From Candidatus Levyibacteriota bacterium (GTDB lineage Bacteria; Patescibacteriota; Microgenomatia; Levybacterales; UBA12049), in the NCBI GenBank assembly GCA_049519175.1, contig JBEKQZ010000002.1, positions 70,782-134,781 on the forward strand: a stretch of 64,000 nucleotides of DNA, read 5' to 3'. Under the pieces are notes generated by a model. The model did not search any database, was not told the DNA's origin, and was given only the letters and a program-made list of their open reading frames with translations. Shown here piece after piece: positions 3,384 to 56,904 of this stretch (the first letter of the stretch is position 1; every line of letters starts with the position of its first letter). Position numbers and translations under genes: made by a program.

Positions 3384-3649
3384 TATTTCGTATTAAGCAA
3401 CCCGTATAATTCATTAAAAAACTTTATATTCGAGAAGGTAATTCATTTGCGAAAGAATTGAAAGACGGCTCTATATTCCATTTTATTTTATATTGAATTT
3501 CGTAGCCGGCTTTCATTTAGCGAACGGTGAGTTTTTGATAAATAAGTGAATTCTGGCGAGCGTCTTGAGCAAATGTGATTACCCTCGAGAATTCTAAATA
3601 AACCTCGGCGAAAAATTAGAAATTAGAAATTAAGAATTGAAATTTAAGG

Positions 3650-4224: not shown

Positions 4225-5508
4225 TTAAAATTTTAGCAACTTTTCAAAGCGTTGTCTATCAGGAAAATTACCGATAATCGCCAGATTCAATTGGCTTTGC
4301 TTAAAATACTTTTTGGCGGCCGCTTCAACCTCTTCCATAGTCACTTTGTCGATTTTGGCCATCAATTCTTCCGGCGTTTCAATTTTCTTTTCCAAAATCT
4401 CGGCCAGTCCATAAAACCAAGCAACAGCATGACTATTTTCAAGCCCTAAAACTATATGTCCTTTTAAAAACTCTTTGGCTTTGTTAAGTTCTTTTTCTGT
4501 TAGATTAGCTTTACCTTTGGAGAATTTAGAGTATTCTTCCATTATCACTTTTATTCCATCCTCAACTTTTTCTCTATCAAGTCCCGCTATTGAATATAAA
4601 GTACCGGCATCTTGGTAGTTTTCAGATGTTGTACCTACGTAATAGGCTAACCCTCTTTTTTCGCGAACTTCTGAAAATAGCCTCGAACTCATCCCTCCCC
4701 CCAGGATAGAAGCCAAAACTTGAAAAATGTGTTTTTCTTCGTCAACTATTGAAACTGTTCTAAAACCGACTGCCAAATGTACTTGTTCTGTATCTTTCTG
4801 TTTTATATTAAGAGCTGGTTTGATCTGGTTCTCAACTAGTTTTTTATATCTTAACGTATCGAAAGATTTCATTTTCCCGAAATACTTTTCAATTAGTTCT
4901 TCTACTCTTTCCGTGTCAATTCCACCCGCTACGACGACAGTTATATTATCTGCGCTGTATAAACTACCTATATAATCAACAAAATCCTGCCTGGTAATGT
5001 TTTTTATGACTTCTTTTCTCCCTCCAATATCCCATCCCATTGGAGTATCCCCATATAAAAGCTCGGGATAAAGATCAAGTATTTTCCTTGAAGGGGTATC
5101 TTCATAAAGATTTAGTTCTTGAATAATAACTCCTTTTTCTTTTTCAATTTCGATCTTATCCAGCTTGGAATTCTGTAGCATGTCCGAAAGCACATCTAGA
5201 GATAATTCCAAATGAGTTACGGGAGATTTGATATGATAACCAGTAAACTCTCTTTCTGTAAAAGCATTAAATTCACCACCTACTCCGTCTATCAATATTG
5301 CAATATCCTGGGCGGTTGGTCGTTTGGCGGTTCCCTTAAACGCCATATGCTCTAAAAAGTGGGAGATGCCGTTGTTCTGCCTGTTTTCGTAGCGGCTGCC
5401 GGCTCCAACCATTACCATGGCAGTGGCGCTTTCAAACGAAGGCATGGGAATCGTGATGACTCTTAAACCATTCTGGAGGACTTTTCGCGTATATTTCATC
5501 GACATCAT
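4225..5508 (-). CDS. M16 family zinc peptidase (insulinase/pitrilysin-like)
   Basis: Inverted zinc-binding motif HFLEHMAFKGT (HxxEH) near the N-terminus. Its 427-aa length is typical of M16B. Confidence 0.85.
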   Translation of the reverse strand: MMSMKYTRKVLQNGLRVITIPMPSFESATAMVMVGAGSRYENRQNNGISHFLEHMAFKGTAKRPTAQDIAILIDGVGGEFNAFTEREFTGYHIKSPVTHLELSLDVLSDMLQNSKLDKIEIEKEKGVIIQELNLYEDTPSRKILDLYPELLYGDTPMGWDIGGRKEVIKNITRQDFVDYIGSLYSADNITVVVAGGIDTERVEELIEKYFGKMKSFDTLRYKKLVENQIKPALNIKQKDTEQVHLAVGFRTVSIVDEEKHIFQVLASILGGGMSSRLFSEVREKRGLAYYVGTTSENYQDAGTLYSIAGLDREKVEDGIKVIMEEYSKFSKGKANLTEKELNKAKEFLKGHIVLGLENSHAVAWFYGLAEILEKKIETPEELMAKIDKVTMEEVEAAAKKYFKQSQLNLAIIGNFPDRQRFEKLLKF

Positions 5509-7723: not shown

Positions 7724-8449
7724 ATGTTATCTGTACTCGCTTATAATATTCATTTTGGGAAAAAATTAAATTTAATCGAAAAATGGCTACTCAAAAATCC
7801 AGCCAGATTTGACTTAGTCTGTCTACAAGAGTTTCCTTTTGACGAGAATTCTTCGCTTTTAACTACCTTTAAAAAACACGGCTTTGACTACAGATTCGCG
7901 CCTTCTTCATTTTTAACCAAACCGCTTTTGAAAAAGCAAAAATACGGAGAGCTAACAGTGTTTAAAAAAAACAAAATTCAGCTTCTGGATAGTTATGTTA
8001 TTAAACTCGGCGCCAATTTTTTGGAAAAAAGGTTTAGAATTGACGGACAAAAAACTTCACTACTTACCGTCTTTCGCTATCAGTATCAAAAAATTGTCAT
8101 CGCCAACTCCCAGCTTGTCTGTTACGCGCCCAATTCGCGCCGCATCAACCAGATTGCCAAAATTATTAAAAAAGTCGAGGCTTTAGACGACCACTCGCCG
8201 TTTTCAACCGTAATTTTGGGAGATTTTAATTACACTTCCCGCATCAGACAGAAAAAGCTGATTGAGTTTATGGCTAAAAACGACCTCGTAAATGCCTACA
8301 GAGCACACACTCACAAGTATTTTTTTATTCCCCAGCAGATTGATTATGTTTTTTACAACGGCTGTCATGTTGAAAACGTTAAAATCGGCAAAAGGATTAA
8401 ATATTCCGACCATTCTCCGGTTTGGTTCGACCTCGACTTGACGAAATAA
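7724..8449 (+). CDS. endonuclease/exonuclease/phosphatase (EEP) family protein
   Basis: Motifs LVCLQEF, GDFNYT and SDHSPVW match the EEP fold. Confidence 0.8.
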   Translation: MLSVLAYNIHFGKKLNLIEKWLLKNPARFDLVCLQEFPFDENSSLLTTFKKHGFDYRFAPSSFLTKPLLKKQKYGELTVFKKNKIQLLDSYVIKLGANFLEKRFRIDGQKTSLLTVFRYQYQKIVIANSQLVCYAPNSRRINQIAKIIKKVEALDDHSPFSTVILGDFNYTSRIRQKKLIEFMAKNDLVNAYRAHTHKYFFIPQQIDYVFYNGCHVENVKIGKRIKYSDHSPVWFDLDLTK

Positions 8450-8493
8450 TCCTCTTGCAATTTTTGGAAATTGCTGTTACGTTTAATATAGAT

Positions 8494-9538: not shown

Positions 9539-11281
9539 ATGAGCCTCACTCTTTTTAACTACACCGGAGTGACAATTACTGTGGTTATGGCCGTCGTCCT
9601 GGTTGTATTGATTTTCAAACAAAAAAAGCAAAACCGCGAAATTCAAGCCAGAGAAAGTCTGGAAAGACAAAGGCTTTACCAAATTTCGATTTTAAAACAA
9701 ATTCAGGACAAAATCGGCTATTCGCTGGACATTGAGGAAATCGTTGATGTCATCACCGGCAGTTTAAAACACCTCTTTCCCTACTCAACTGTCGCCAGCA
9801 TTTTAATAAAAGAGAGCAAATTGGTGTTAAAAATTAATGTCGAAGAAACTGTCAGCACCAATTTTTTGGCAGAGGTTAAAAAAACCATGCTGGCATCTCT
9901 AAGCACTTTAATCGGCAATTTGCCCGGGGAAATTGAGCAAAAAGTGCAAGGCATACCGCTAGACGAAACTAAAAATGCTCCGGTCGCTTCGTTTTTTAAC
10001 ATTCCGCTAGTTATCGGCAACGATTTTGTCGGCTTGATTAACGTTTCGTCCAAAGAAAAACATTTTTACAAAGAAGACGAAGTCACCATCCTCTATCAAA
10101 TTGTCGACCAGGCTAGTAACGCACTTTTGAAACTTAAAAACGTGCTGGAAATCGAAAAAGGCAAACTGCTGTCAATGATTTCCAGTCTCGTCGACGGTGT
10201 TTTTATGGTTGACGCAAACCAAAACTTGTTGGTGATTAACGACGCCGCCAAAACTTTTTTGGGCTTAAAAACCGCCAATCCGGTCTTTACCGACTTGCTG
10301 GTTTCACTCGGCACACAGTATAATCTTTTGGATAAAATTAGCGACGCTTTGACAAGAAACACGCTGGTTGAAGACAAAGAAGTTACCATTAATGACAAAA
10401 TTTTCCAGATATTTATTACGCCGGTAATAAGTGCTAACCAAAATGAGTTGAATAAACCGCTCGGCGCCTCGATTCTTTTACACGACATTACGGTTGAAAA
10501 AAGCGTGGCGGCCATTAAGGAAGATTTTACCAATATGATGGTGCACGAACTACGCGCACCGCTAACCGCCATTAAAGATTCCGCCGAGTTGATGGTGGAG
10601 CTCTTGGATGAAGCCGGAAAATTGGAAAAAGATGAAGAAAAAAGGTTCCTAAATATCATTGACCAGCAATCCAAGAATTTATTGGGGCAAATCGGCCAGG
10701 TTTTAGACGCCGCCAAAATCGAAACCGGCAAATTTAGCATTAACAAAACGACTTCCGACATTGGAAAGGTTGTGACAGACGCGGTCGAGCCGTTTTTGCC
10801 TGAAGCGCGCAAAAAACAGATTTATTTATTGACTCAAATTAACTCGCCGCTGCCCAAAATTGATATTGATCCCCTACGCATTACCCAAGCGTTGAACAAT
10901 TTGATTTCTAACAGTCTTAAATTTACGCCGGTGAATGGAAAAATTGTGGTTTCGGTCAAAAATACTGACGAGGGGTTGAAAGTGGCGGTAACCGACAACG
11001 GCATCGGCATTCCGGAAGATGAACAGGCAGATTTATTCTCCAAGTATTACCAAATTAGAACCACGCCTCACCAGCTCGCCAAAAAAGGCACGGGACTAGG
11101 ATTATATATTACAAAAGGTATCGTAGAAGCACACGGCGGAATGGTTGGAGTTGAATCCGAAGGACTGAATAAAGGCACAACGATTTATTTCACTTTGCCG
11201 GTTGCCGAAGGCACGCCAACTATCATCCACTCGCACTTTCCACAAATGAATTCAACTCCCCTCTCCCAAACCGTGAACTAA
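9539..11281 (+). CDS. sensor histidine kinase (TM, GAF/PAS-like region, HisKA and HATPase_c)
   Basis: N-terminal TM helix. H-box HELRAPLTAIKDS, N-box LNNLISNSLKF, and G-boxes DNGIGIP and GTGLGLYITKGIVEAHGG are all present. Confidence 0.85.
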   Translation: MSLTLFNYTGVTITVVMAVVLVVLIFKQKKQNREIQARESLERQRLYQISILKQIQDKIGYSLDIEEIVDVITGSLKHLFPYSTVASILIKESKLVLKINVEETVSTNFLAEVKKTMLASLSTLIGNLPGEIEQKVQGIPLDETKNAPVASFFNIPLVIGNDFVGLINVSSKEKHFYKEDEVTILYQIVDQASNALLKLKNVLEIEKGKLLSMISSLVDGVFMVDANQNLLVINDAAKTFLGLKTANPVFTDLLVSLGTQYNLLDKISDALTRNTLVEDKEVTINDKIFQIFITPVISANQNELNKPLGASILLHDITVEKSVAAIKEDFTNMMVHELRAPLTAIKDSAELMVELLDEAGKLEKDEEKRFLNIIDQQSKNLLGQIGQVLDAAKIETGKFSINKTTSDIGKVVTDAVEPFLPEARKKQIYLLTQINSPLPKIDIDPLRITQALNNLISNSLKFTPVNGKIVVSVKNTDEGLKVAVTDNGIGIPEDEQADLFSKYYQIRTTPHQLAKKGTGLGLYITKGIVEAHGGMVGVESEGLNKGTTIYFTLPVAEGTPTIIHSHFPQMNSTPLSQTVN

Positions 11282-11746: not shown

Positions 11747-14122
11747 CTATCCAACTACAAAATTAATCAGTTTTCCTTCGACGTAAATTACTTTCTTAAT
11801 TGACTGGTTTTCGAGATATTTTGATACCTTTAGACTATGTTTTACGGCTTCTTCAATTTCTTTTTGTTCTTTAATTTTCGTATTTTGAATTGTGAGCGTA
11901 TCGCGGAGCTTTCCATTGACCTGCACCACGACTGACACCATTTCTTCAACTAAGTATTTTTCTTGATATAACGGCCAATTCTCTAAATGAATCGAGTTAG
12001 CACTTGTATTTATTAAGTGCCATAATTCTTCCGTAATGTGCGGCGCAAACGGCGCCAGCAATCTCAAAAGCGTGGCATATTCTTCTTTATCAACCTTTTC
12101 TTTAGCGCTTAAATAATTTAACCAGGTCATTAAAGCTGCCACCGCCGTATTAAACTGGAAATTATTTAAATCATCCCCTACTTTTTTAATGGTTTTGTGC
12201 ATCCGCACCGAATCTGACTGAGTTAATTTCGTTTCTGAAACTTTTTCGGAAAGCTCCCAAATTCTTTTTAAGAACCGGTAAATTCCCGAAATTGCACTAG
12301 TTGACCACGGAGAGGTGGCTTCATAAGGCATCATAAAACAAAGGTATAATCTGACCGCGTCGGCACCGTATTCCTTGACTACGTCATCGGGATTAACCAC
12401 GTTTCCCTTGCTTTTACTCATGCGGTTACCGTCCGGACCCAAAATTACTCCGTGCTGCACGCGTTTCTGAGCAAATTCGCTAAATTGAACTAGACCCAAA
12501 TCTTTGAAGAACTTCGTGAAAAACCGGGCGTATAAAGTGTGGCCCAAAGTATGCTCCGCTCCGCCAAAATAAACGTCAATCGGCATTAGCTGGCTAACTT
12601 TTTCTTGATTGAACGGACCATTTTTGAAATCTGGGGAGCAATAGCGGTAGTAATACCAGGCGCTGTCAAAAAAAGTATCCAGCGTTTCTGCGTCTCTTTT
12701 AGCTTTACCGCCGCATTTTGGACAACTGACATTAAGCCACTGCTCATCGGTTGCCAGCGGCGGCTTGCCTTTGGGTGTCCAATCAACGTTATACGGCAAT
12801 TCCACTGGTAATTTTTCTAAAGGAACAGGCACTAAACCGCATTTTTCACAGTGAATGATCGGCACGGGCGTTCCCCAATAACGCTGACGCGAAACCGACC
12901 AGTCGCGCAAATGATAGTTAACCATCTTTTTGCCCTCGGGTTTGGCTTTAAATGAAGTTTCAATAATTGGCAACTTGAACTTTTCGGCAAATTCTCTGTC
13001 TCGCTCGTCGGCAAACGGCACCGCCATAATCGCGCCCGTTCCGTAACCCGCCAGTACATAATCGGCAATCCAAACCGGAATCTCTTTGCCGGTCAGCGGA
13101 TTCTTAACATATTTGCCCGAGAACACTCCCGATTTGGTCCGGTCTTCTTTGCGCTCCATCTCGGTTTTCTTTTGCGCTTGCTTGATATAATCCTGAACTG
13201 CTTTGGTTTTGATGTTTTGCGCAAACGGATGTTCCGGCGCCACCACCATAAAAGTGGCCCCGTCGGTAGTCTCCGGCCTGGTCGTAAAAACCTCAATAGA
13301 TGACTTCTGACTACTAACTTCTGGCCTCTGACTACTTTTTATTGGAAATTGGAAATTGGAAATTGGAAATTGAAGTAGCATTCCTTCGCTTCTGCCGATC
13401 CAGTTGTTTTGTCCTTCCCGCACCTGTTTTGGCCAGCCCGCATCGCTTTGCGAAGTATTGCTGGCGGGCCATTCAACTTCCGGCTTGCCCACCGAAGCTT
13501 CAGCGGAGGTGGGCCAAATTAGCTTATCGGCGTATTTGGTAATGGCCAAAAACCACTGCTCTATTTCTTTTTGAATAACTTCCGTGCCACAACGCCAGCA
13601 TTTGCCGTTTTCGATATGCTCATTGGCCAGCACAGTTTGATCCGTTGGGCACCAGTTTGATAGTGCTTTTCCACGATATGCCACGCCTTTTTCAAACATT
13701 TTTAGAAAAATCCACTGGTTCCAGCGGTAATATTCCGGCAGACAAGTGACGACCTCGTGCGACCAGTCAATCATTGTACCCATAGTCGCGAATTGTTTTT
13801 CCATTGTCTCGACATTTTTAAGCGTCCAGTCTTTGGGATGCACTCCCCGCTTGATGGCCGCGTTCTCCGCCGGAAGCCCGAAAGCATCAAAGCCATTCGG
13901 AAAGAAAACATTTAAACCATTCATTCTTTTGTAGCGGGCATGTGCATCGGCCGGAGCAAAGGCAAACCAGTGTCCCATGTGTAAATCGCCGGAAGGATAC
14001 GGAAGCTCGACTAAATTATAATATTTTGGAGTTTTGGCAGATTCGTCGAATTTATACAATCCGTCTTTTTGCCATTTTTCTTGCCACTTCTTCTCAATTT
14101 CGCTGGGAAAATACCTTTTCAT
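11747..14122 (-). CDS. leuS: leucine--tRNA ligase
   Basis: HMGHWFAFAPADA (HIGH) and KMSKSKGN are present, with the CP1 editing-domain motif TTRPETTDGATF. 791 aa. It contains an in-frame (GGAAATT)4 tract just before CP1. Confidence 0.9.
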   Translation of the reverse strand: MKRYFPSEIEKKWQEKWQKDGLYKFDESAKTPKYYNLVELPYPSGDLHMGHWFAFAPADAHARYKRMNGLNVFFPNGFDAFGLPAENAAIKRGVHPKDWTLKNVETMEKQFATMGTMIDWSHEVVTCLPEYYRWNQWIFLKMFEKGVAYRGKALSNWCPTDQTVLANEHIENGKCWRCGTEVIQKEIEQWFLAITKYADKLIWPTSAEASVGKPEVEWPASNTSQSDAGWPKQVREGQNNWIGRSEGMLLQFPISNFQFPIKSSQRPEVSSQKSSIEVFTTRPETTDGATFMVVAPEHPFAQNIKTKAVQDYIKQAQKKTEMERKEDRTKSGVFSGKYVKNPLTGKEIPVWIADYVLAGYGTGAIMAVPFADERDREFAEKFKLPIIETSFKAKPEGKKMVNYHLRDWSVSRQRYWGTPVPIIHCEKCGLVPVPLEKLPVELPYNVDWTPKGKPPLATDEQWLNVSCPKCGGKAKRDAETLDTFFDSAWYYYRYCSPDFKNGPFNQEKVSQLMPIDVYFGGAEHTLGHTLYARFFTKFFKDLGLVQFSEFAQKRVQHGVILGPDGNRMSKSKGNVVNPDDVVKEYGADAVRLYLCFMMPYEATSPWSTSAISGIYRFLKRIWELSEKVSETKLTQSDSVRMHKTIKKVGDDLNNFQFNTAVAALMTWLNYLSAKEKVDKEEYATLLRLLAPFAPHITEELWHLINTSANSIHLENWPLYQEKYLVEEMVSVVVQVNGKLRDTLTIQNTKIKEQKEIEEAVKHSLKVSKYLENQSIKKVIYVEGKLINFVVG

Positions 14123-14130
14123 AAATTAAA

Positions 14131-14244
14131 ATTGCGGGAAGATTACAAAATTTTCGCTGCTTTCATCCGAATTCCTTGGTAATAAAAATCTACTGATACA
14201 GTATGAGCTGAAAGCGAGAAAATTTTCGCAAGCGACCTCAGCAC
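14131..14244. repeat. copy B of the leuS-flanking direct repeat
   Basis: ttgcgggaagattacaaaattttcgctgctttcatccg ... gagctgaaagcgagaaaattttcgcaagcgacctcagca. It is in the same orientation as copy A. Confidence 0.7.
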
Positions 14245-14313
14245 TTTCCTCTTATGCCTAGTATAGCATAACAATTATTTGACTTCCTAATCGTCTATGT
14301 GTAATCTTAAATT

Positions 14314-15129
14314 ATGGCTGAAGTTCATGATGTTTTAGCTTATAAAAAGCAGAGTAATTTTCGTGCTCTTTGGGAAGAATTCCAAGCTCAAGGAAGATTC
14401 GCTAAGGTTTTTATCTTTTTTACGTTTCTTGTTTCAATCTCCACTATGGCTCTGGCTGGTACAAGTTTAACTTTAATAAATTATGCTGCGGAACCAATCT
14501 CAACTATGCAAGCACCACAACAAACTTTACTTGCCTATGGAGGAAACCGGCGCTCTTATTGGACCAACAATTATCCTACGCCAACACCCACACCTACACC
14601 AGTACCTATACCTACAATAACTCCAATAACTAATACAGCAACTACCAACTTCACGACTACAACTACACCAACGCCAACAATAACACTTGCTCCTGCTCAA
14701 ACTTTAGCTGTTACGCCAACAATAACACCTGTTCCTGCTCAAACTTCAATTCCCACAGCAAATTCAATGCCCACAACAACCCCAACTCCTACCCCAATTC
14801 CAACTCCAACTCCAACTCCAACGCAAAACGCTATTCAACAAGCCCAACAATCTGTTGTTTCAACGATTGACAATCTTTTCCATATTCCTACGCCAACATA
14901 TTACTCCTCTCCTCAGGATTCTTTAGGAAATGATTCGTCAATACCCCTGCCACAGACTCCTACACCAATACCTACAAATATAACGCCTCGGGAAACAAAT
15001 TTTTTCAAATTTGCTTTTGATGTTATTGCTAAAGCTAACAATTCCGTAGTAAGCTTAGCAGGCAATCTTTTTTCAAGCATTCTAAAAGTCATTTTCCCTT
15101 CACCAATACAAATTAATAATAACCCTTAA
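14314..15129 (+). CDS. membrane-anchored Thr/Pro-repeat protein (PTPTPTP linker)
   Basis: N-terminal TM helix followed by long TPTPTPTP/IPT low-complexity stretches. Confidence 0.5.
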   Translation: MAEVHDVLAYKKQSNFRALWEEFQAQGRFAKVFIFFTFLVSISTMALAGTSLTLINYAAEPISTMQAPQQTLLAYGGNRRSYWTNNYPTPTPTPTPVPIPTITPITNTATTNFTTTTTPTPTITLAPAQTLAVTPTITPVPAQTSIPTANSMPTTTPTPTPIPTPTPTPTQNAIQQAQQSVVSTIDNLFHIPTPTYYSSPQDSLGNDSSIPLPQTPTPIPTNITPRETNFFKFAFDVIAKANNSVVSLAGNLFSSILKVIFPSPIQINNNP

Positions 15130-15176
15130 ATAGACATAGACTTGCAGTTTTAAGCTAAATTGCCTACGATAAGAGT

Positions 15177-15812
15177 ATGAAGATTCTTTTACAATCGCTA
15201 ATTCTAGTTTTGTCTTTCGTCTTTGTTTTTGTCTGGAAAGAAACGCCATTCGCCAGTTACACTGTCCCCCTAAGCGGACTCTTGATTGTTTTGTATATTT
15301 TGCTTTCGGCCAGGCAAAAAGGCAAAGGCTTTTTACAGATGGGCGGCGAAGGCCCATGGGGCATTTTCTTTTTAAACACCGTGATACTTTTGCTGATCTT
15401 TTCGACTGGTTCAATTGATTCGGTTTTATTCTTTTTGTTGTATTTCTTGGGTTTCGGCATTGCTTTTGTGTTTGAACCGGCGGTCACCTTTGTTTTTGTG
15501 CTGGGAGTGATTTTAGTTTTTGTTCCCGACGCCATCAAAGGCGATTTATTAGTAAATTCATTAAAACTTGGCTCGCTGCTTTTAATTTCTCCGCTCGCCT
15601 TTTTCTTTGGCAAAGAATACCGCAAAACCGACCAGCAGGATGAAGTAATTGAAGGCCTGGAAGAACGGACCAAAGAAGCCGCCGACACGATTTCCGAAGA
15701 TATCGAAGAAGTAATTAAAGACGAAAAAGCCGGTTTGAAAGACGAAGATATGGAGAAACTGAACGAAATTTTGGAAGAAACCGAAGACTTGAGAGAAGAA
15801 TCAAAGCATTGA
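15177..15812 (+). CDS. integral membrane protein with an acidic C-terminal tail
   Basis: 4-5 TM helices followed by a D/E-rich tail (EEAADTISEDIEEVIKDEKAG...). Confidence 0.5.
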   Translation: MKILLQSLILVLSFVFVFVWKETPFASYTVPLSGLLIVLYILLSARQKGKGFLQMGGEGPWGIFFLNTVILLLIFSTGSIDSVLFFLLYFLGFGIAFVFEPAVTFVFVLGVILVFVPDAIKGDLLVNSLKLGSLLLISPLAFFFGKEYRKTDQQDEVIEGLEERTKEAADTISEDIEEVIKDEKAGLKDEDMEKLNEILEETEDLREESKH

Positions 15813-15888
15813 TTCTTCAATTTCTAATTTCTAATTCTTGATTTCTAAATAAATCCCAATGTTTTAAAAATTTAAAATTGAAAATTCA

Positions 15889-16638
15889 ATGAAAATTAAA
15901 AATTGTAAATTAAAAATTGGCCTCGCTATACTTACTACTTGCTACTTAATACTTACTACTGCGCAGCCGGCGAGCGCTCAAACTATGAGCAACAGCAGCT
16001 ACATTATTCAAATGGGCAATTTAAATTCCATCTCGGGCGAACCGACCGGCTCCGGATATAAATTGAGCTATACTTCCGGGCAAACCGGTCCGGGACTTTA
16101 CTCCGGCACTAATTATAAAGTGCGCGCCGGCTTCCAATATATTTCCTCCATTATCCCCTTCCGCTTTAGCATCACTAACACCTTTATTGATTTTGGTATT
16201 GTCAGTCCGACTTCTCCGGTTTTAAGAACCAGCACTTTAACCATTTCCAACGGTTCCGCTTTTGGCTACCAAGTAACAGCTTCCGAGAATCATAATTTGC
16301 GAGTCAATAGTTCGGGCTTTGAAATTCCGCCGACTGCCTGCGGCGACTCCGGTCCGTCGTGCACGCCAACCTCTGCCGGCCCCTGGACCAGCACCTTAAC
16401 TTACGGCTTTGGTTATAGATGTGATAATCAGACCGGCACCGACTGTGACAGTCAGTTTTCCGACTCCACTTATTACAAACCGTTTATTGCTTCCCCGTCG
16501 GCAGTGGCAGTAATGAGTGGTACCAATGTTAGCAAAAACAGAGTTTCGCAAATCACTTACAAATTAAATATTTCCGGCTCCCAAGCGGCAGGATTGTATA
16601 CAAATGTTATCAATTACATAGCGACACCAACCTTTTAA
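15889..16638 (+). CDS. secreted surface protein with a WxL-like C-terminal module (small member)
   Basis: Signal peptide ending ...TTAQPASA-Q. The C-terminus ...YTNVINYIATPTF resembles the C-terminus of the 496-aa protein (YTATPSF). The 5' end is built from AAATTNN heptamers. Confidence 0.55.
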   Translation: MKIKNCKLKIGLAILTTCYLILTTAQPASAQTMSNSSYIIQMGNLNSISGEPTGSGYKLSYTSGQTGPGLYSGTNYKVRAGFQYISSIIPFRFSITNTFIDFGIVSPTSPVLRTSTLTISNGSAFGYQVTASENHNLRVNSSGFEIPPTACGDSGPSCTPTSAGPWTSTLTYGFGYRCDNQTGTDCDSQFSDSTYYKPFIASPSAVAVMSGTNVSKNRVSQITYKLNISGSQAAGLYTNVINYIATPTF

Positions 16639-16643
16639 GTATC

Positions 16644-17618
16644 ATGAATAAAGTATTAAGTATTAAGTATGGGAAAAGTTTTGGCCTAATCACGGCTGTC
16701 ATACTTACTACTTGTTACTTCATACTAAATACTGAGCCGGCGCACGCTCAATCCGTTGACCTGGGTATTTACCCGCCGGTTTTTCAAATTCAAGCCAACC
16801 CGCCCAGCGACGTAAAAATTCCTTTTTTCATTCAAAATTTCACCAATTCAAGTGTTCCTTTAACCATTTCTCTCAAGCCTTTCACCGCCGACCCGGCGGA
16901 AAATGGCAACATCACTTTTTTGGATGTCCCCGACTATGCCGACCCATATCTGCCGGAAAGAATTCAGGTTTTGGACGCGGATAATTCGGTTGGTGATTTC
17001 ATTCTCTCCCCGCAGCAGAAGAAAAATTTGACGCTGGAAGTGCAAATTCCCAGTAATGAACCCAAAGGCGATTATTACCTGGCATTAGTCTTTTCATCCA
17101 ACGCCGGCAATTCTGGCAATAACACCTCTTCCCAAGTAGCCACCAGCATTGCCAGCAACATTTTGCTTTCAATCGGTCCGGTCGGACCAACCAAAGGTGA
17201 CATTGAAGATTTTTCCACGCCGTTTTTTACCACTAAAGGTCCTGTTCCGTTTACGGTGAGCGTCAGAAATACCAGCGACCATTACCTTACGCCCAAAGGC
17301 TCAATTTTGCTGAAAAATATGTTTGGGCAAGCCATTGGGAAAGTGAATCTTTTACCGGTGAACATTTTGTCTAATACAGTACGCAAAATCCCCGATTCGC
17401 TTCAGACCAATTCGACAACGGCAGTTTGGCCGGAAAAATTCCTGATCGGACCTTATACCGCCATTTTGACTTTAGCGCTATCCGACAGCGGTCCGCTTTT
17501 TACCAGACAAATTATGTTTTTTGCCTTCCCGCTTGAATATTTAGTCGCGATTTTTCTGGTAATCGGCTTAATTATCTTTATCGCCGTCAGGGTAAGCGAA
17601 AACCGCAAAAGACTCTAA
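16644..17618 (+). CDS. DUF916-like cell-surface protein (N-terminal signal, C-terminal TM plus basic tail)
   Basis: Signal peptide MNKVLSIKYGKSFGLITAVILTTCYFILNTEPAHA. C-terminal TM LVAIFLVIGLIIFIAV followed by RVSENRKRL. It is a paralogue of the 19169 gene. Confidence 0.55.
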   Translation: MNKVLSIKYGKSFGLITAVILTTCYFILNTEPAHAQSVDLGIYPPVFQIQANPPSDVKIPFFIQNFTNSSVPLTISLKPFTADPAENGNITFLDVPDYADPYLPERIQVLDADNSVGDFILSPQQKKNLTLEVQIPSNEPKGDYYLALVFSSNAGNSGNNTSSQVATSIASNILLSIGPVGPTKGDIEDFSTPFFTTKGPVPFTVSVRNTSDHYLTPKGSILLKNMFGQAIGKVNLLPVNILSNTVRKIPDSLQTNSTTAVWPEKFLIGPYTAILTLALSDSGPLFTRQIMFFAFPLEYLVAIFLVIGLIIFIAVRVSENRKRL

Positions 17619-17673
17619 AAAACCTTGACAAACCCCAAAAAATACTTCATATTTAATTGTATAGTAGTATAAC

Positions 17674-19164
17674 GTGATAAAAAGATTAACTAAAAATTCA
17701 TCGATACTCGTCCTCTTTCTTTTAATTGCAGGAACATTTTTCACATCTAAGGCTAGCGCTTCTTCCCTCACTCAAGCATCCGACACTATTACTACCTCAA
17801 GACCTTCGGCTGCTGCTACTTTAAGCGCAAACCTTACTTCAAGCTCCACCGCAGCAGAAATCGGAGACAAAGGAGACATCTTTTTGGCTTCCGATTCTGC
17901 CATACTTTCCGCCGATACGGGAGAAACGTTGGAAAAAGTAACGGTCGCCTCGATGTCGGCAACCGGCGTTCCGATTCCTAGTCAGAAAATGGTTTATTTT
18001 ACCACCGCAACAGCAAATTCCCATCACGTCGGAGACGTTGTCATTGTTAATATTACCGCCACACACTTGATTAAATTTAATACCAATGCCGCCGTTCCGA
18101 GCGGAGGACATATCATTCTTACTTTTCCAACTACTAGCGCCAATACCGCTTCTCCTTCGGCCACCGGTTTTTCTTTTAACGGTCTTACGAGCGGCAATAT
18201 GAGCACTTATGTTCAGTGTAATCCGTCAAATGCCTGCGGCGGAAGCAGTCAAAGCGTTTCGGGTAATACCATTACTCTAACTACTACTGGAGCCGTTAGC
18301 GGCACTGTTTATATCTCGGTTGGCTGTCAAAGTGGCGTCAGCTCAAGCGGAATATGTACTACCCCGTCTCCGCTATTGATTAATCCTACCGTTTCTTCCA
18401 CCCAATGCTCCGGCTCAACCTGCACTGCCGGAGCGACAAATGACGTCTGGAAAATTACTGTTCAAACCACCGATACAAATAGCGTTACTCTTGATTCCGC
18501 CAGAGTAATCGTCGGAACAATTGAATCGGTTCAAGTCCAAGCGCAAGTCGAACCGACCTTAACTTTTGCCATCACCGGATTAGCTAATACGACCAATTAC
18601 AACACTACGGTTAGTCAGTGTGGTTCGGAAGCTTCCAACACCGGCATTGATTCCACTGCTACAACCGTTAATCTTGGAATTTTAAATAATGCGCAAATTA
18701 ACCGCGCCGCGCAAACTCTAACTGTTACTACCAACGAAGCTTTTGGTTATACCGTTACTGCTTCTTCTTCCGGACGTTTGATTAGCCCCGCGTCCGGCTT
18801 ATATCTTCCCGACGCCAACGGCGGCTCAGGTTTAACCACCAATCTTCTTCCCGCTCCAGCAGCCATGACCGCCGCCACTCCGGCTTTCGGCATTAGCCCT
18901 TGCGGAGTTGATGTTCCAACTTCCAGTCCCAACTGGGGAGGAACCGGGCAGACGGTTGCTTCAGGAGCTTTATTTGCTAACCCATGGAATAGCGCAGGAA
19001 ACGCCTACGCAATGACACTTGCTAGCTATACCGGCGGCCCTTCAAACGGAACTACAGCGACTCATGGAGTTACTTTGGTTAGATATGGCGCAACCGTTGC
19101 TGGAACAACGGCTTCCGGTGTCTATACAACAACTTTAACCTATACGGCGACGCCGTCATTCTAG
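17674..19164 (+). CDS. secreted Ser/Thr-rich surface protein with a WxL-like C-terminal module (large member)
   Basis: Signal peptide ...SKASA-SS. C-terminus YTTTLTYTATPSF. Thr/Ser/Gly-rich and β-rich. Confidence 0.55.
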   Translation: MIKRLTKNSSILVLFLLIAGTFFTSKASASSLTQASDTITTSRPSAAATLSANLTSSSTAAEIGDKGDIFLASDSAILSADTGETLEKVTVASMSATGVPIPSQKMVYFTTATANSHHVGDVVIVNITATHLIKFNTNAAVPSGGHIILTFPTTSANTASPSATGFSFNGLTSGNMSTYVQCNPSNACGGSSQSVSGNTITLTTTGAVSGTVYISVGCQSGVSSSGICTTPSPLLINPTVSSTQCSGSTCTAGATNDVWKITVQTTDTNSVTLDSARVIVGTIESVQVQAQVEPTLTFAITGLANTTNYNTTVSQCGSEASNTGIDSTATTVNLGILNNAQINRAAQTLTVTTNEAFGYTVTASSSGRLISPASGLYLPDANGGSGLTTNLLPAPAAMTAATPAFGISPCGVDVPTSSPNWGGTGQTVASGALFANPWNSAGNAYAMTLASYTGGPSNGTTATHGVTLVRYGATVAGTTASGVYTTTLTYTATPSF

Positions 19165-19168
19165 TATT

Positions 19169-20167
19169 ATGAATAAAGTATTAAGTATTAAGTATAGAAA
19201 AATTTTCGGCTTATTCATGGTCGTTATACTTACTATTGGCTACTTAATACTAAATACTGCACAGCCGGCGCTCGCCCAAGAAACAACCAGAACCGTCACC
19301 ATTTCTTACCCGACCATCGCTCAAAAACTTGACGCTGGCGGCCAGGCAGAAGGCATCACTAAAGTTACCAACAGAAGCGATACGACTCTAACTTTTAAAT
19401 TAGGCGTCCAGGATTTTATCGTTACTGATACCATTGGCACTCCTGAGTTTTTGCCACCGGGAACGTTGAATGATAAATATTCCGCCGCGGCTTGGATCGG
19501 AGCTACTCCCGATACTTTTACTTTAAAACCCGGAGATTCACAAACCATAAACTATTATATCCAAGTACCTCAAAATGCCAGACCGGGCGGACATTACGCC
19601 GCGCTTGTTTATTCGCCGGTCGTGGACAAAACCGTCAGCGGTTCCGGCAGCACCATTAACTCACAGCTTGGCTCTCTTTTTTACATCACCATCAACGGTC
19701 CGATTCACGAGCAAGCATTGGTCAGCAAGTTTTTCGCCAACCCTTTCCAGGAATATGGCCCGGTCAATGTTTTGACCCAACTTAAAAATCTCGGCGATTT
19801 ACACATCACGCCGCAAGGCACTATTACTGTCACCGGTTTATTCTTTAATCAGACCCAAAACTTGCCGACCCATAACATTTTTCCGGAAGCAGCCAGAGAT
19901 TTTAGCAATACTTTTGGACAGAGTCTGATGATTGGACCGTATAAAGCGGTACTCTTAGCCAGTTACGGCACTAATAATAATCTTCCGCTGATGGCGACCG
20001 TTTCTTTCTGGGTTTTCCCGTGGAGAATAACGCTGGTAATTGTGCTTGCGATAGTCGCTTTGATTCTCGGCGCATTATATCTTAAGAAAAGGAAAAAAGA
20101 CGACTCTAAAAAACCTCAAGAAGCCGAAGTTGAACCTGTAGCTACTCCAACCGAACAAGTGAAATAG
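19169..20167 (+). CDS. DUF916-like cell-surface protein (paralogue of 16644..17618)
   Basis: Nearly identical signal peptide MNKVLSIKYRKIFGLFMVVILTIGYLILNTAQPALA. C-terminal TM followed by KKRKKDDSKK. Confidence 0.55.
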   Translation: MNKVLSIKYRKIFGLFMVVILTIGYLILNTAQPALAQETTRTVTISYPTIAQKLDAGGQAEGITKVTNRSDTTLTFKLGVQDFIVTDTIGTPEFLPPGTLNDKYSAAAWIGATPDTFTLKPGDSQTINYYIQVPQNARPGGHYAALVYSPVVDKTVSGSGSTINSQLGSLFYITINGPIHEQALVSKFFANPFQEYGPVNVLTQLKNLGDLHITPQGTITVTGLFFNQTQNLPTHNIFPEAARDFSNTFGQSLMIGPYKAVLLASYGTNNNLPLMATVSFWVFPWRITLVIVLAIVALILGALYLKKRKKDDSKKPQEAEVEPVATPTEQVK

Positions 20168-20188
20168 CCTCTGGAGTTTCGACTTTGA

Positions 20189-21046
20189 CTAGTATCCCAT
20201 CCACCAACTGTGGTGCAACGGACGCTTCTTAAGAGGATTGACGAATCGCCTTCCCCACAATTTTCTGATCAGTATAATAATCAGGATAACGATTGGTATG
20301 ACAAGCCAAAGTGGATTCCAAAGCCAGTTCTTTAGAAAACGCAGCAGCTGCTCCCACCAATTATTCACCAAATTCGTCACTTGCTTTGGCTTAGAAATAG
20401 ATGTCAGTTGTAATTTTTTTGTCGGGCTTAAAGACTGTTTTTGTTTATATTCTGCCGTGGCGTACAAACTGTAGTTGCCGGCTTTCAGATTTTTTAAAGC
20501 AAACTCATAATAGCCAGTCGAGTCGGCATAAGTGGTAAGCAATTCCCCATTGACGTGCAAAGTGACTTCGGCTTTGGGCATAGTGTAACCAAAAGCCGTG
20601 GCGCTGCCGCCTTCATTAACGGTTGTTCTGGACAATCCTAAAGTCGGCGGAAGAAAAATGTCTTTCATAGTGACGGAAGCGGTTGCAGGCGGAATCGTAA
20701 AACACGTATAAGATTCGCCTATTCTTTTAAAATCTATCGCATCTAGGCAAAAGCCGGAGAAACCCTGTTTGATTAAAACTTGGTTAATTGTAAAGTCGCC
20801 CTGGGCGTCCGCGGTTGTTCCAATCATAAAAACTCCATTTGAAGTTAAAACAACCGAAGCGAAAGGCGAAATATAGCCGGACAAATTTAAATAGAATTGC
20901 CCCACCGAAGCCTGCACTGCAGTATGTAAAGATCCTGGTGGAATTGAAGACACCTGCGCCAAAGACTGAGAGCTTGGAATGATAAAAAATGCAATTGAAA
21001 TTAAAACAATCAGTAGTAATCTCTTCATTACTGATATTATGCTCAA
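20189..21046 (-). CDS. secreted protein with a C-terminal membrane anchor
   Basis: Signal peptide MKRLLLIVLISIAFFIIPSSQSLA. C-terminal TM LWLVIPIVILIIILI followed by RKLWGRR. Confidence 0.5.
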   Translation of the reverse strand: MSIISVMKRLLLIVLISIAFFIIPSSQSLAQVSSIPPGSLHTAVQASVGQFYLNLSGYISPFASVVLTSNGVFMIGTTADAQGDFTINQVLIKQGFSGFCLDAIDFKRIGESYTCFTIPPATASVTMKDIFLPPTLGLSRTTVNEGGSATAFGYTMPKAEVTLHVNGELLTTYADSTGYYEFALKNLKAGNYSLYATAEYKQKQSLSPTKKLQLTSISKPKQVTNLVNNWWEQLLRFLKNWLWNPLWLVIPIVILIIILIRKLWGRRFVNPLKKRPLHHSWWMGY

Positions 21047-21614
21047 AATCTAGCATATATTGCAAGCGAAAAACTATTTTACTATCAAATCTAAATGGCT
21101 TAAGCATTGAAGACTGCTTGAAAACTAACAAAACGTTGTTATATCAATCCAAATATACATTTTTTGTTAGATATCACTTCGACCCTCTAACTGCTAAAAA
21201 ACGACTAAATAATTCTATTGTTTAGCAATTCTTGTTAAGAAAATATATTTCCTTAATGTGTTTTTGCTGCAGAGAACTGACTACCATACCTTAACGCATC
21301 ACTAACAAATATAGGCCTTCTGATATATATTGATGTTTAATGATAGCTTAATTTAGGCAAAATTTAAAACCTTTTGTGCGTTAAAACAAAATAATTAGTC
21401 AGATTTTTCACAATTTTCCCAGAAAATCTACAATGATATAAAATACTACTTACCGCATCATATAAAAATACTCTAGGGCCTTGACAGCAATTTTCAAAAT
21501 TCTTTATTCTAATAGTATGTTAAGTTTTTTTCTTTTAAAGCCATATAAACAGTATAATCCGTATAATCTTGAAGCTAAACAGCTGTCCACCGAGAAAGTG
21601 GCTCGGTAATCAAA

Positions 21615-24600
21615 ATGGATTTATTAAATTTATTCAAAACCTATTTATTTTCACAGGAAGATAAATCTAGTAAGGTTACGGTTAAAAATTATTTATCGGA
21701 TATCAACCATTTCATCCACTGGTATGAAAACACTTTTACCAAAAGCTTTAATCCGAAAGAAATCTCCAGCTTAACTTTAAACGATTATCGAGCCAGTTGT
21801 TCTCAAGCGTTTTCCCCTAGTTCACTAGAACGACATTTTTCATCGCTTCGCAAGTTTTTTAAGTTCTTGCTGATTGAAAGCAAAATTTCCTTAAATCCAT
21901 TTGAAATTAAGAATTTAAAACTAGAAGCACAGCATGATCCGTGGCACATTAAAGATTTTAAAGATTTTCTCTATGTTAGCAACGCTTCGCATTTGACAAT
22001 CAAAAATTATTTAATTGATATTAAACAATTCATTACTTGGGTACAGGCAGTAACTGAATCAAATAATGTTTTGGGGGATATTGATTCGAAACTGATTGAA
22101 GAATATAAACAAAGACTGCTGGAGCAGGGAGATTTTTCGCCGGCGACGATTAACCGCAAGCTATCTTCGCTTCGCAAATATCTTGCCTGGGTACAAGCTA
22201 AAGGATTAGTCAGTCTGCAGCCATCAATTTCCAATTTCCAATTTCCAATTTCCAATCAATTGAGCAATGAGGCAATTGAACAACCTATCAACCAACAGCC
22301 AGCCGAAAGGAAGTACTCAGCTTTCCCTCCTTTTAGAATAGCTCAGAAGATATCAAATGCATTCATTTTTGCCTTAGACAGTGGTCTAATTATCTATTTG
22401 GCAAAACTGGTAGACCGAATTGAATACGCGCTTTGGAAAACCAAAGGCCAACCGGTTTTTGCTAAACTCAAAACGCAAAACGTAAAATTCAAAAATCTGA
22501 CTTCGAACTTCCAAATTCTAAATCCAGCGTCCAGCGTCCAGCGTCCAGCGTCCGTGAAAAACTTACCGAAATCTTTCTATGCCCCGCTGGAAATCTCTAC
22601 CAAATTTTTTCCGTGGTATAAAAAGGCTTGGATAACTGCCAGATATTCCCGACCAAAGTGGTATAAAACATATCATTCCTATCCAATTGTCCATTATTTA
22701 CACTTTGCGGTTTTGATTATCTTTTTAATCGCTATTAGCTTTGGTTTTTATAACGTGTTTTTTCAAAAAGGTAATCAATCACCAACTTTGGCTGCTAGCC
22801 CGGTTGCGCCGCTAAGAATTTTATCTTTTCAAGGAAGATTAACGGATAACAATGACAACCCAATTACGACACCAACCAACCTCCGTTTTGGCATTTATAC
22901 CAGCTCAAGTGCCACCGACTCTGCCAGCACCGCTATTTTCCCCTGGCAGGAAGTCGACACTGTTTCGCCCGACCAGGATGGAATTTTTAATGCCATCTTA
23001 GGCAACAACTCCCCAATTCCATCCACACTTTTTACGCAAAACAACGCGCTTTGGCTGGGTGTAACCGTTGGCACGACGCCGGAATTAACGCCCCGACAGC
23101 AACTGGCAACTGTTGCTTTTGCCACCAACGCCGAAACCTTGCAAGGAATGGTTCCAACCACTTCCAACCCAGCCGCCTATACCAACACGGTTTTAGCGCT
23201 TGACGGAACTGCCAGCTCGCCTACTCTAACCATTGGCGGACTTGTCGGCGCAACTTTTCAGGCCACCGGCGGACAATTTCAAATCTTAGGGACGCCGCTT
23301 TTGCTTGGCACGACTAATGGGTCTGGCGGAAACGTCATCATCGCGCCCGACGGCGCAGGATTGATTGACTTACAAAAACCGCTCGTTAATACTACAAACA
23401 ATAACAATTTGGCCGGCGCCGCGGGCGCAGTTGAAGTTGATGACACCTTTGGCATTTTAGCTACTAGCTCTGCCACGGCTTTTGTGCTTAACCAAAATGG
23501 CGCCGGAGATTTAATGGCGGCTTCCGCCTCCGGAATAACTAAGTTTAGAATTGCTAATACCGGACAAATTATTGCTCCCTATTACAATAGTTGCACTTTA
23601 AAAACTGACAGTAGTGGAAATATTACTTGTGGAAGCGCTGGCGGAGCGCAATTTTGGCAAGAATTATCCGGCGCTTTGTCCCCTTCCAATCTCGGTGACG
23701 ACGTTTTGCTTGGCAGTTCCAGCACTGCATCTGCCAAATTTGCTTTCACCGGCTTAATGGGAACCCAAACTCAAGCTTCATTTTCGGGACAGCTGATAGT
23801 GATGTCTGACAACGGTTATGGTGGCAATGTCGGCATCGGGACGACTACTCCTTCGGTCGCCTTGGATGTTGCCGGCGCCGGCAAATTCTCTTCCAACCTG
23901 ACCGCTTCCACCGGTAATATTTCTTTAGCTAATACTTCCGGCAATACTACCATCGGCAACGGCTCCGGAACACTGGCTTTATCATCTTCCGCTTTTAACG
24001 TCACGACCGGCGGAGCCGTCTCTGGAGTCACCACTCTATCTATGAATAATCAGCTGAGTAACTCCTACGCTAACACAGCTGCTATCAATTTAACCGGTAA
24101 TGCGGCTGGCATCACTTTCGGCGGCAGCGGAGCTAATCAAATCATCACCGGCGGAACCAATAATCTGGCGCTAATGCCGGGCGGCAACGTCGGTGTTAAT
24201 ACCACTTCTCCGTTAGCGCCCCTGGATGTTCGAGGAAATTCCAGTACTACCGCTGTTGCATCGGTTTCCGGTCAAACTTCCTTTGCCGCATTAGTCGCTA
24301 ACAACAACGGCGTTGGCGATTTATTCACCGCTTCTGCTTCGGGTTGGACCAGGTTTAGAATTACCAGCGCGGGCACAGTTTTACCCGGAGCGACAAATGC
24401 TCAAGATATTGGTTCAAGTTCTTTGCAATGGAACAATATTTACGCCAATAATTATTACCTTAATGGAGTTCCTCTAACTTTTGGCGGTTACTGGCAAAGA
24501 ACCGCCGGCAATCTTTCACCCGTCAATACCAATGACACTTTAGCTGCGACTTCTTCGGCCGCAACTGTAGCAACGTTTACCAGCAATAACCCAACCGGCA

Positions 24601-46516: not shown

Positions 46517-46540
46517 TTGTGTTTGCCAACATGCAGCCGA

Positions 46541-47829: not shown

Positions 47830-47889
47830 GTTAATGATAAATGATTAAGGATTACTGATTAATGAATTTTTTCGTCCGTCCGCAGATGA

Positions 47890-56873: not shown

Positions 56874-56904
<31 letters not shown>

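Follow-up and report, generated by a model that had tools for sequence, protein, structure and literature searches.

Heptanucleotide tandem arrays inside genes of a Candidatus Levyibacteriota bacterium and at orthologous sites in its relatives

Results

Heptamer arrays in the window

The sequence considered here, termed the window, is a 64,000-nt stretch of a contig of Candidatus Levyibacteriota, which belongs to the candidate phyla radiation (CPR). The proteins of the contig are named Levyibacteriota at NCBI, and the window shows CPR hallmarks in its 23S rRNA gene, which is 4.2 kb long and contains a group I intron and a LAGLIDADG open reading frame (ORF). It carries tandem arrays of heptanucleotides, several of which are translated in frame within leuS, radA, a ribosomal protein S1-like gene and a giant gene. 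These genes and their arrays are:

11747-14122, minus strand: leuS, leucyl-tRNA synthetase (LeuRS), 791 residues (ORF, translation; Pfam tRNA-synt_1 and Anticodon_1)
13341-13372, minus strand: perfect array in leuS, (AATTTCC)4.6 in coding sense, (ATTGGAA) on the plus strand (Tandem Repeats Finder (TRF), 100% matches, score 64)
13301-13340, minus strand: degenerate heptamer-phased continuation of the leuS insert (period-7 scan)
48877-50205, minus strand: radA/sms, 442 residues from MARIETSF (Pfam Zn_ribbon_LapB 8-35, AAA_25 63-223, ChlI 345-427)
50053-50076, minus strand: perfect array in radA, (AAATCAC)3.4 in coding sense, (TTTGTGA) on the plus strand (TRF, 100%)
50324-51424, minus strand: ribosomal protein S1-like gene, 366 residues, GTG start (Pfam S1, four stretches; database name ribosomal protein S1)
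51389-51419, minus strand: degenerate array in the S1 gene, AAATCAC AAATTCC AAATCAC (TRF 51392-51416, 3.6 copies, 77% matches)
21615-30188, plus strand: giant ORF, 2857 residues (ORF, Pfam, translation, homologues)
22225-22256, plus strand: perfect array in the giant ORF, (CAATTTC)4.6, encoding SISNFQFPISN (TRF, 100%)
22459-22553, plus strand: about 13 heptamer-phased units in the giant ORF, with a degenerate 5' end followed by perfect (TCCAGCG)4.4 at 22523-22553 (TRF, 100%; period-7 scan)

A scan for 7-mer periodicity with TRF had been suggested in a preliminary description of this DNA. It was run on the whole window and on relatives, and revealed a strong excess of period 7. Perfect tracts were required to have at least three copies and were compared for periods 5-15. 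Four have period 7, and the other periods contribute one hexamer tract only. A loose criterion of at least 15 matches over 21 positions yielded 19 period-7 tracts in the window, where 0.7-1.4 are expected from Markov-1 shuffles, and no tract at periods 8, 10, 11, 13 or 15. Period 7 is thus the dominant tandem period in the window, far above chance, with short units repeated head to tail in 3.4-4.6 copies in the perfect arrays. Nine of the 19 tracts lie fully within ORFs, four are intergenic, and six touch or span the start or stop of a gene, three of these also extending into the 5' end of the following gene.

The heptamer tracts of the preliminary description, including its degenerate AAATTNN-type runs (3613-3644, 15819-15919 and 34853-34877), were all recovered by TRF, with boundaries that coincide or are shifted by 1-3 nt, and its translations are correct (leuS; SKSQITNHKSQ for radA; VAKQITNSKSQ for S1; SISNFQFPISN and PASSVQRPAS for the giant ORF). 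It regarded the host genes as essential, which holds for leuS and S1, both indispensable, but not for radA, which is not normally so.

The leuS array

The leuS product matches T. thermophilus LeuRS (1h3n) over its full length (E 2e-207). The array at 13341-13372 encodes QFPISNFQFPI directly before TTRPET, the protein reading LLQFPISNFQFPIKSSQRPEVSSQKSSIEVFTTRPET at this point, or GMLLQFPISNFQFPIKSSQRPEVSSQKSSIEVFTTRPET in another extract. On the plus strand, the four perfect units are preceded by six degenerate ones (TGACTTC TGACTAC TAACTTC TGGCCTC TGACTAC TTTTTAT), which encode KSSQRPEVSSQKSS. The tract, previously given as (GGAAATT)4, does contain these perfect units, but they are the last four of about 11 heptamer-phased units that span 13301-13372. 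In the alignment with 1h3n, the insert corresponds to a gap between ILFPVEG and KEVRIPVFTTRPDT, at the turn of the hairpin through which the chain enters the CP1 editing domain.

Among species-representative genomes, the closest leuS genes are found in Candidatus Levyibacteriota metagenome-assembled genomes (MAGs) with 85% (L004) and 74% (L005) amino-acid identity, followed by other Microgenomates/Patescibacteria. Distant relatives have a loop of 13 residues at the site of the array (FPVQDSEHKITVF, FPVEDSNLKIKIF), and L005 has a shorter loop without repeat. In L004, the loop contains (CAATTCT)3.7 and has the same length as the 13-residue form. The loop of the window, with (CAATTTC)4.6 and the six degenerate units, is 45 nt longer than that of L004, where the degenerate continuation is absent. 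The codons for QFPI are CAATTTCCAAT in L006, and those for QFPI(S) are CAATTTCCAATTTC in L078. The perfect tract of the window equals the L006 seed with exactly 21 nt added, and these 21 nt duplicate the resident unit next to them and bring in nothing foreign.

A second lineage-specific insert of leuS is found at 13405-13442 (residues ~205-229), where TSAEASVGKPEVEWPASNTSQSDAG stands in place of the EDPEVD of L004. It contains a 1.9-copy duplication with a 20-nt period and no heptamers. At this position, L006 and L078 have a repeated element of about 150 nt, which interrupts their leuS genes in frame at three or four sites (3644-3803, 3965-4124, 4695-4854 and 5780-5939 in L078; 834-984, 1120-1281 and 2727-2877 in L006). 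It is always translated as ..SRFSDDARSS..SLSESLSS..AFDSPQSELPP, the other frames containing stops, and has a central palindrome, TCGCTAAGCGA. One intergenic copy, 74% identical over 129 nt, is present in the window (3444-3571, minus strand), with a heptamer array at a distance of 37 nt. The element looks like a candidate in-frame mobile element of CPR bacteria, resembling the Rickettsia palindromic elements (RPE).

The radA and S1 arrays

The radA array encodes KSQITNHKSQ, residues 43-52, in the stretch that separates the zinc ribbon (residues 8-35) from the ATPase domain, which starts at residue 63. Gene callers differ on the length of the protein (444 or 414 residues). In many relatives, the linker that follows WN(T/S)L(K/R)E also contains a heptamer array, with a unit that differs between them (at least eight linkers). 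The units include AGTTCAA ×4.6 in L085, AAATCTC ×4.7 in L088, TTCCAAA ×3 in L119 and a 14-nt double unit in L110, and degenerate arrays are found in L084, L092 and L100. The arrays of L085, L117, L119 and L110 begin at the F codon after the conserved E of the motif.

The S1 array encodes KQITNSKSQ, residues 3-11, in the N-terminal tail ahead of the first S1 domain. This tail, which precedes TMAELL, bears arrays in at least 12 relatives, such as AAATATC ×5.4 in L109, CAAAGTT ×5 in L116, AATTCAA/G ×5 in L117 and AGTTCAG ×4.7 in L093. The tails of L086 and L087 have no array, and that of the window is exactly seven residues (21 nt) longer. As in leuS, the additional 21 nt copy the adjacent resident unit and are not foreign.

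A 7-nt array is read in all three phases, so that one unit on one strand gives a fixed cyclic peptide of seven residues. Three units encode QFPISNF for AATTTCC and KSQITNH for AAATCAC, and peptides encoded by the arrays include QFPISNFQFPIK and SQITNHK. The cyclic reading explains why leuS and the giant gene share QFPISNF, and radA and S1 share KSQITN(H/S). The hairpin loop of LeuRS at CP1, the RadA linker between zinc ribbon and ATPase domain and the N-terminal tail of S1 bear out the earlier view that the tracts are tolerated in linker positions. It is likely that extra residues are tolerated at all the positions that arrays occupy in proteins. The preliminary description had also asked whether orthologues carry the same peptides encoded by non-repetitive DNA; no such relative was found.

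The arrays of the giant gene

The giant protein begins with two tandem Phage_int_SAM-like domains of the integrase core-binding type (Pfam, 2-97 and 112-195). Linkers come next, then a probable membrane helix and a C-terminal part that is very large and has no annotation. The helix is a hydrophobic stretch at residues ~355-380 that was read by eye. The protein is named 'site-specific integrase' in databases, and no catalytic domain was detected in it. Its homologues are nearly all truncated, on short contigs.

The array at 22225-22256 is identical to the 32-mer of the leuS array, in the same coding sense, and encodes residues 203-213, directly after the second SAM-like domain. The second array, which encodes residues 283-312, precedes the hydrophobic stretch; its degenerate 5' units read AAACTCA AAACGCA AAACGTA AAATTCA ... 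Both sites are hypervariable linkers among the homologues. L169 (70% identical) has a degenerate heptamer-like stretch of nearly equal length at the site of 22459-22553, and L170 has (GATTAAA)3 near the array sites. At ~1130, L169 has an in-frame TAG where all homologues have the Trp of FPWYKKAW, and downstream of it the frame is still conserved. Recoding, a nonsense mutation or an error in sequencing could account for the TAG.

The 32-nt arrays of leuS and the giant gene form inverted repeats 8.85 kb apart. An inversion between them was considered and rejected, as all long contigs and the strains L171 and L172 are colinear.

Lineage distribution, units and lengths

The loose period-7 count was extended to four groups of loci:

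radA relatives with at least about 60% identity: 294 kb, 107 period-7 tracts observed, 4.6 expected from shuffles
CPR-labelled leuS loci: 168 kb, 51 observed, 4.6 expected
Chloroflexi-labelled loci: 161 kb, 18 observed, 1.2 expected
Firmicutes-labelled loci: 216 kb, 5 observed, 6.4 expected

The excess is lineage-wide: it is found in the relatives and in Chloroflexi-labelled loci, but not in Firmicutes-labelled ones. On 462 kb of Microgenomates-type loci, TRF reported 174 arrays of period 7, 17 of period 6 and 44 of period 9. The 53 perfect tracts comprise 32 canonical units, which are A+T-rich, and no common flanks, conserved ends or target duplications were found around the perfect arrays. 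Heptamer arrays of the CAGTGAT, CCTGAAA and GGACCGT types are carried by the Chloroflexi-labelled loci L029, L017 and L039.

About 60% of the arrays (107/174) lie in long ORFs, as do 22 of the 26 long perfect ones, including arrays in aminoacyl-tRNA synthetase and ribosomal protein genes. Long ORFs hold 0.28 arrays per kb, and the rest of the sequence 0.88. This depletion of about threefold in coding sequence about equals that from frame filtering alone. After de-duplication, the array lengths show a sharp peak at 31-33 nt (4.4-4.7 copies), almost none at 40-48 nt and a second cluster at 49-53 nt. The mode of the coding arrays fits a seed of 1.x copies with three units added.

Stability between strains and renewal between lineages

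Eight other contigs overlap the window, from JGI, ENA (MEGAHIT k141) and Logan, representing at least six samples and three assembly pipelines. Seven are identical to it over every array that they cover, and the eighth, L168, has five substitutions and no gaps. All eight assemblies represent the same strain, and the copy number of the heptamer arrays is unchanged in them. One of the Logan contigs, L164, was built with k=31; it corresponds to 13344-22253 of the window and ends inside the leuS and giant-gene arrays, as expected of identical 32-mers that are inverted relative to each other. The arrays are genuine, with copy numbers that can be relied on.

Copy number was then compared with strains L171 and L172, which are 96.5-99.3% identical to the window. 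None of the nine heptamer arrays covered has changed. The sole tandem-repeat polymorphism is a 12-nt change in the hexamer array at 14799-14822. In L173, with 92% genome identity, the radA array region is 100% identical over 91 nt. At the level of assemblies, no copy-number heterogeneity was thus seen among close strains, and the contention that the tracts are not phase-variation switches is upheld. Arrays of three to five copies are stable across strain-level divergence and hence do not switch genes. The hexamer array belongs to a region at 14777-14822 in the gene 14314-15129, with CAACTC and four perfect TCCAAC units (14799-14822); it is two units (12 nt) shorter in L171/L172, the products having 271 and 267 residues.

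Copy number does change between more distant genomes. In the S1 protein of L173 (P0080), the degenerate array is replaced by about 4.4 perfect copies of AAATTCA, the tail being four residues (12 nt) longer, and differences are also found in L004 and in L084-L119. The S1 genes of L109 and L116 are only 77% identical, and yet each holds a perfect tract at the same site, 38 nt long in L109 and 35 nt in L116 and made of different units. An inherited tract is expected to have decayed in both at this identity, so that the tracts must have been regenerated recently in each lineage. Arrays that are perfect while their flanks have diverged by about 22% indicate that renewal is continual. The arrays turn over at several percent sequence divergence and are not hypermutable. 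The tracts had been taken for recent insertions: the perfect ones are young, but the sites are old hot spots that hold other heptamer units in many lineages. Homogenisation was considered from the comparison of radA in the window and L084 and was dropped, the six differences in 21 nt being not clearly above the gene-wide divergence of 17%; the case for renewal is based on L109/L116 and L173.

Secreted-protein genes and intergenic arrays

Further arrays of the window lie at the 5' ends of three secreted-protein genes, designated by their starts (15889, 16644 and 19169), and between genes:

15819-15960, plus strand: three adjoining arrays (TRF, scan, translation; RNA fold -15.5 kcal/mol, z -2.2)
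16635-16736, plus strand: inverted array pair at the 5' end of gene 16644 (TRF, scan; hairpin -26.3 kcal/mol, z -2.0)
19163-19258, plus strand: equivalent inverted array pair at the 5' end of the paralogous gene 19169 (TRF; hairpin -22 kcal/mol, z -1.7; end of the second arm placed by eye)
3613-3644, no strand assigned: (AAATTAG)4.7, intergenic, with stop codons on both strands (TRF)
34148-34178, no strand assigned: degenerate (TAGTATT)4.4, just after the stop of gene 31978-34146 (TRF)
34853-34877, no strand assigned: (TTGAAAA)3.6, intergenic (TRF)
47831-47865, no strand assigned: (TTAATGA)5.0, intergenic, adjoining the start of the dCMP deaminase gene (47317-47829, minus strand) on its upstream side (TRF)

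Among the three secreted-protein genes, 16644 and 19169 are clearly paralogous. Arrays in these three genes code for the charged n-region and for the hydrophobic core of signal peptides. At 15819-15960, (AATTTCT)4.3 follows the stop of the upstream gene, (AAAATTG)8 covers the start codon of gene 15889, and (TACTTAC)4.6 encodes the hydrophobic core of its signal peptide (MKIKNCKLKIGLAILTTCYLILTT); TRF reports this region as 15819-15848 and 15867-15919. In gene 16644, (AAGTATT)n encodes MNKVLSIKY and the complementary (AATACTT)n encodes ILTTCYFILNT. These n-region and h-region arrays of 16644 and 19169 pair as a hairpin of the mRNA over codons 3-30. P0083 (217 versus 249 residues) was considered as a phase-OFF allele of gene 15889 and rejected, since the DNA over the 5' arrays is identical and the start-codon call differs.

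Many intergenic arrays are inverted pairs with matched arms, as in the S1-radA spacer of L092, L094, L104 and L110. L108 and L116 have further pairs at other places, and the window has them at 15819-15919 and 16635-16736. Single arrays fold no better than shuffled controls (z +0.55, -0.64 and +1.2). On a Microgenomates contig, L108 has inverted AAACTGA/TAACTGA-like arrays (8344-8455 and 10956-11090), which recall the TAACTGA repeats of Beggiatoaceae.

Discussion

Origin of the arrays

The tracts are probably heptanucleotide simple sequence repeats (SSRs) formed in place, by a slippage-type misalignment duplication that strongly favours the 7-nt register in this lineage. We infer both the molecular step, replication slippage, and the reason for the register. 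In ordinary sequence, a short direct repeat with a 7-nt spacing would serve as the seed to which copies of the unit are added, as may have happened to the QFPI codons of leuS. Within genes, the survivors would be those that keep the frame, by a net gain of 21 nt or its equivalent, are free of stop codons in whichever of its three phases the sense strand is read, and are placed where a loop, a linker or a terminal tail tolerates them. Arrays would decay by point mutation, and contraction and re-expansion would then rebuild them, which would account for the different and often perfect units at the same sites across lineages. The encoded peptides would act as spacer, tail or signal-peptide material and have no further specific function.

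The preliminary description left open whether the motif is selfish or slippage-generated. Duplication of resident sequence, seen in the leuS seed with its 21 nt and in the F codon of radA, speaks for a slippage-type origin from local seeds, the slippage step itself being presumed. The diversity of units among the perfect tracts, the lack of conserved ends or target duplications and the derivation of units from local conserved codons speak against a selfish motif.

Several observations weigh against in-place slippage. Slippage by a single unit in leuS is blocked by frameshifted intermediates, so that three units per event, or some buffering, must be needed. Inverted pairs, common among the intergenic arrays, are not predicted by plain slippage. 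Nine of 24 arrays with stops in all six frames are also 31-33 nt long. Selection for frame was therefore rejected as the sole cause of this length mode, and the non-coding mode may point to a step of 21 nt that is intrinsic to the process, or else to a defined module. Certain units are found again at loci with no relation to each other, namely those of the AATTTCT type, and AATTTCC in leuS, the giant gene and L018. The comparison of taxa covers a few hundred kb per group, the groups being defined by MAG labels, and stability was judged from assemblies, so that rare copy-number variants are still possible.

The strongest alternative, though a rather improbable one, is that the arrays are modules of ~21-31 nt, pre-formed and then laid down or inserted by an activity dedicated to this. 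Candidates would be a recombinase, a reverse transcriptase or a polymerase of DNA repair that copies a 7-nt template over and over. Under this reading, ordinary replication would not have given rise to the arrays as a by-product; an enzyme would have made them, or they would be selfish. The quantised lengths, 31-33 and 49-53 nt even in strictly non-coding arrays, the recurring units and the frequency of intergenic inverted pairs with arms of matched length are consistent with modules. So is the pattern shared by the imperfect four-unit arrays, in which unit 3 is the most divergent, but the similarity of units 1 and 4 is partly an artefact of the choice of alignment ends. Against modules, the 53 perfect tracts have 32 different units, visibly derived from local conserved codons, and show no conserved flanks or target duplications. 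Pfam scans of 27 ORFs of the window detected neither a reverse transcriptase nor a transposase nor an unusual polymerase. Taken broadly, it is unlikely that quanta of 21 nt are laid down by an activity that is dedicated to this or specific to the replisome. As a bolder proposal, which we hold to be doubtful, arrays in CPR and Chloroflexi may be built by quantised additions of three units (21 nt, two helical turns), whether coding or not. They would then bear the signature of a specific replisome or repair system, possibly shared with cyanobacteria, and would be a main source of new linkers, tails and signal peptides in reduced genomes.

Selection for function, as peptides with a role, DNA iterons that bind a protein, or RNA hairpins in translation or termination, is quite improbable. 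Inverted pairs fold into hairpins with z of about -2 and recur in the S1-radA spacer of many relatives, and intergenic units have stops in all frames, often directly after stop codons. However, these z-scores are marginal, single arrays have no structure above that of shuffles, and the peptides at the same site are wholly different between relatives and absent in some.

It is very improbable that the arrays are contingency loci, in which frequent changes of copy number by slippage switch or tune expression, at least in genes 15889, 16644 and 19169 and in the giant gene. The architecture of the three secreted-protein genes is compatible with frame switching, as arrays span their start codons and signal peptides; arrays are also present in the giant surface protein, and neuO shows that in-frame heptanucleotide arrays can switch (PMC13001214). 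Against this, the copy number was constant in eight assemblies and in strains of 96.5-99.3% identity while a hexamer array varied, the arrays have just three to five copies and many are imperfect, and the indispensable leuS and S1 cannot be turned off.

An artefact of sequencing or assembly, which the preliminary description had named as a possible refutation, can be dismissed: tandem repeats are a known source of assembly error and L164 breaks inside two arrays, but JGI, MEGAHIT k141 and Logan assemblies of at least six samples give the same sequence, the reading frames all remain open, the arrays are far shorter than reads and final k-mers, and imperfect arrays, which cannot collapse in assembly, share the same features.

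Comparison with known repeats

Heptanucleotides are over-represented among the long SSRs of other bacteria, for which a hypothesis of polymerase slippage or footprint was put forward (Mrazek, Guo & Shah 2007, as reported in PMC4692102 and PMC4679880). According to these accounts, the 7-nt unit is there, too, the most abundant class of long SSRs, lineage-specific and with diverse units. The coding SSRs in them mostly have units of 3n nt, whereas about 60% of the 7-nt arrays here are in long ORFs, and the arrays here are short (mostly 3-5 copies) and clustered at particular lengths. As far as could be found in the same accounts, the survey apparently did not include CPR bacteria. Our literature search found no report of heptamer arrays in CPR genomes.

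The short tandemly repeated repetitive sequences (STRR) of heterocystous cyanobacteria (Calothrix, Nostoc, Anabaena) likewise form many dispersed heptamer arrays of several unit families, sometimes as inverted pairs. STRR heptamers occur also inside the essential rnpB gene, in a variable helix. STRR arrays can be much longer and are mainly intergenic. The heptamer units of the Chloroflexi-labelled loci L029, L017 and L039 may resemble those of STRR. The arrays described here are dispersed and abundant, with 107 of 174 in long ORFs, although their density per kb is threefold higher in non-coding DNA. STRR units are G+C-richer (CCCCAGT, TTGGTCA, CAACAGT; GGGGA(T/C)T in PMC4692102), and a perfect array of 26 GGGGATT units has been reported in Nostoc. 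No canonical STRR unit was seen in the window, where the units are A+T-rich (AATTTCC, AAATCAC, AAATTAG); neither the unit sequences nor the host, a member of Levyibacteriota and not a heterocystous cyanobacterium, are those of STRR.

In neuO of the E. coli K1 prophage CUS-3, (AAGACTC)n varies from 3 to 53 copies, is hypermutable in cultures and acts as an ON/OFF switch (PMC13001214). As here, the array is translated in frame as a 7-residue repeat, full-length protein being made only with copy numbers divisible by three. The neuO gene is dispensable, however, whereas the arrays of 3-5 copies here are invariant among strains and reside in indispensable genes.

RPE were reportedly described by Ogata et al. 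in 2000 as selfish DNA inserted in frame in protein genes. Like the heptamer arrays, they add peptides to surface loops of essential proteins by processes at the DNA level. RPE are defined mobile sequences of ~100-150 nt, whereas the heptamer arrays have no common sequence and stem from local codons. No conserved sequence, defined ends or target duplication of an in-frame mobile element were found for them, and the differences at leuS (from L006) and S1 (from L086/L087) are clean gains of 21 nt.

The tandem repeats of Borgs, which create disordered protein regions, are also perfect, fast-evolving and of local, independent origin, and add low-complexity linker-like segments to ORFs (PMC9879509). 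Their units in ORFs are all divisible by three (PMC9879509), whereas the unit here is 7 nt and the frame is kept only by the number of units. The TAACTGA repeats of marine Beggiatoaceae and some cyanobacteria are concentrated beside the starts and stops of genes; one of their orientations has stops in all three frames, and the other is occasionally translated (PMC4679880). They consist of one favoured unit and are mostly intergenic (PMC4679880), whereas many units are found here and most arrays are coding.

The arrays thus belong to a known class, that of over-represented heptanucleotide SSRs, with new features: they are short, quantised and largely intragenic, and across Microgenomates they come back at the same permissive sites of orthologous genes. 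They reflect a mutational habit of the whole lineage and are neither a switch nor a parasite. One would expect coding sequence, and indispensable genes most of all, to lose repeats with units other than 3n, and here such genes commonly contain them across the CPR. Ordinary codons become loop, linker, tail and signal-peptide sequence in steps of seven residues, which offers a concrete mutational route to many lineage-specific insertions in CPR proteins. Annotators and assemblers should be cautious, as an assembly at k=31 was interrupted by a pair of identical 32-nt arrays, and start codons close to arrays are placed differently by different gene callers. The arrays are also a large new dataset on why 7 nt is the favoured slippage register in some lineages, a question raised since 1990 and 2007, and the quantisation of lengths by 21 nt may be a mechanistic clue to it.

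Other features of the window

Rfam matches in the window are limited to rRNA, tRNA and the group I intron, with none at the arrays. The 5S and 23S rRNA genes, at 56567-60960, contain no heptamer arrays. The length of the 23S gene is due to insertions, which include the group I intron (58040-58273) and the LAGLIDADG ORF (58346-58876). A tRNA-Ala(TGC) gene is located at 61074-61149. Two intergenic copies of a 158-nt sequence (46533-46690 and 47882-48039), which are 83-84% identical and have no relation to the 150-nt element of leuS, flank the dCMP deaminase gene.

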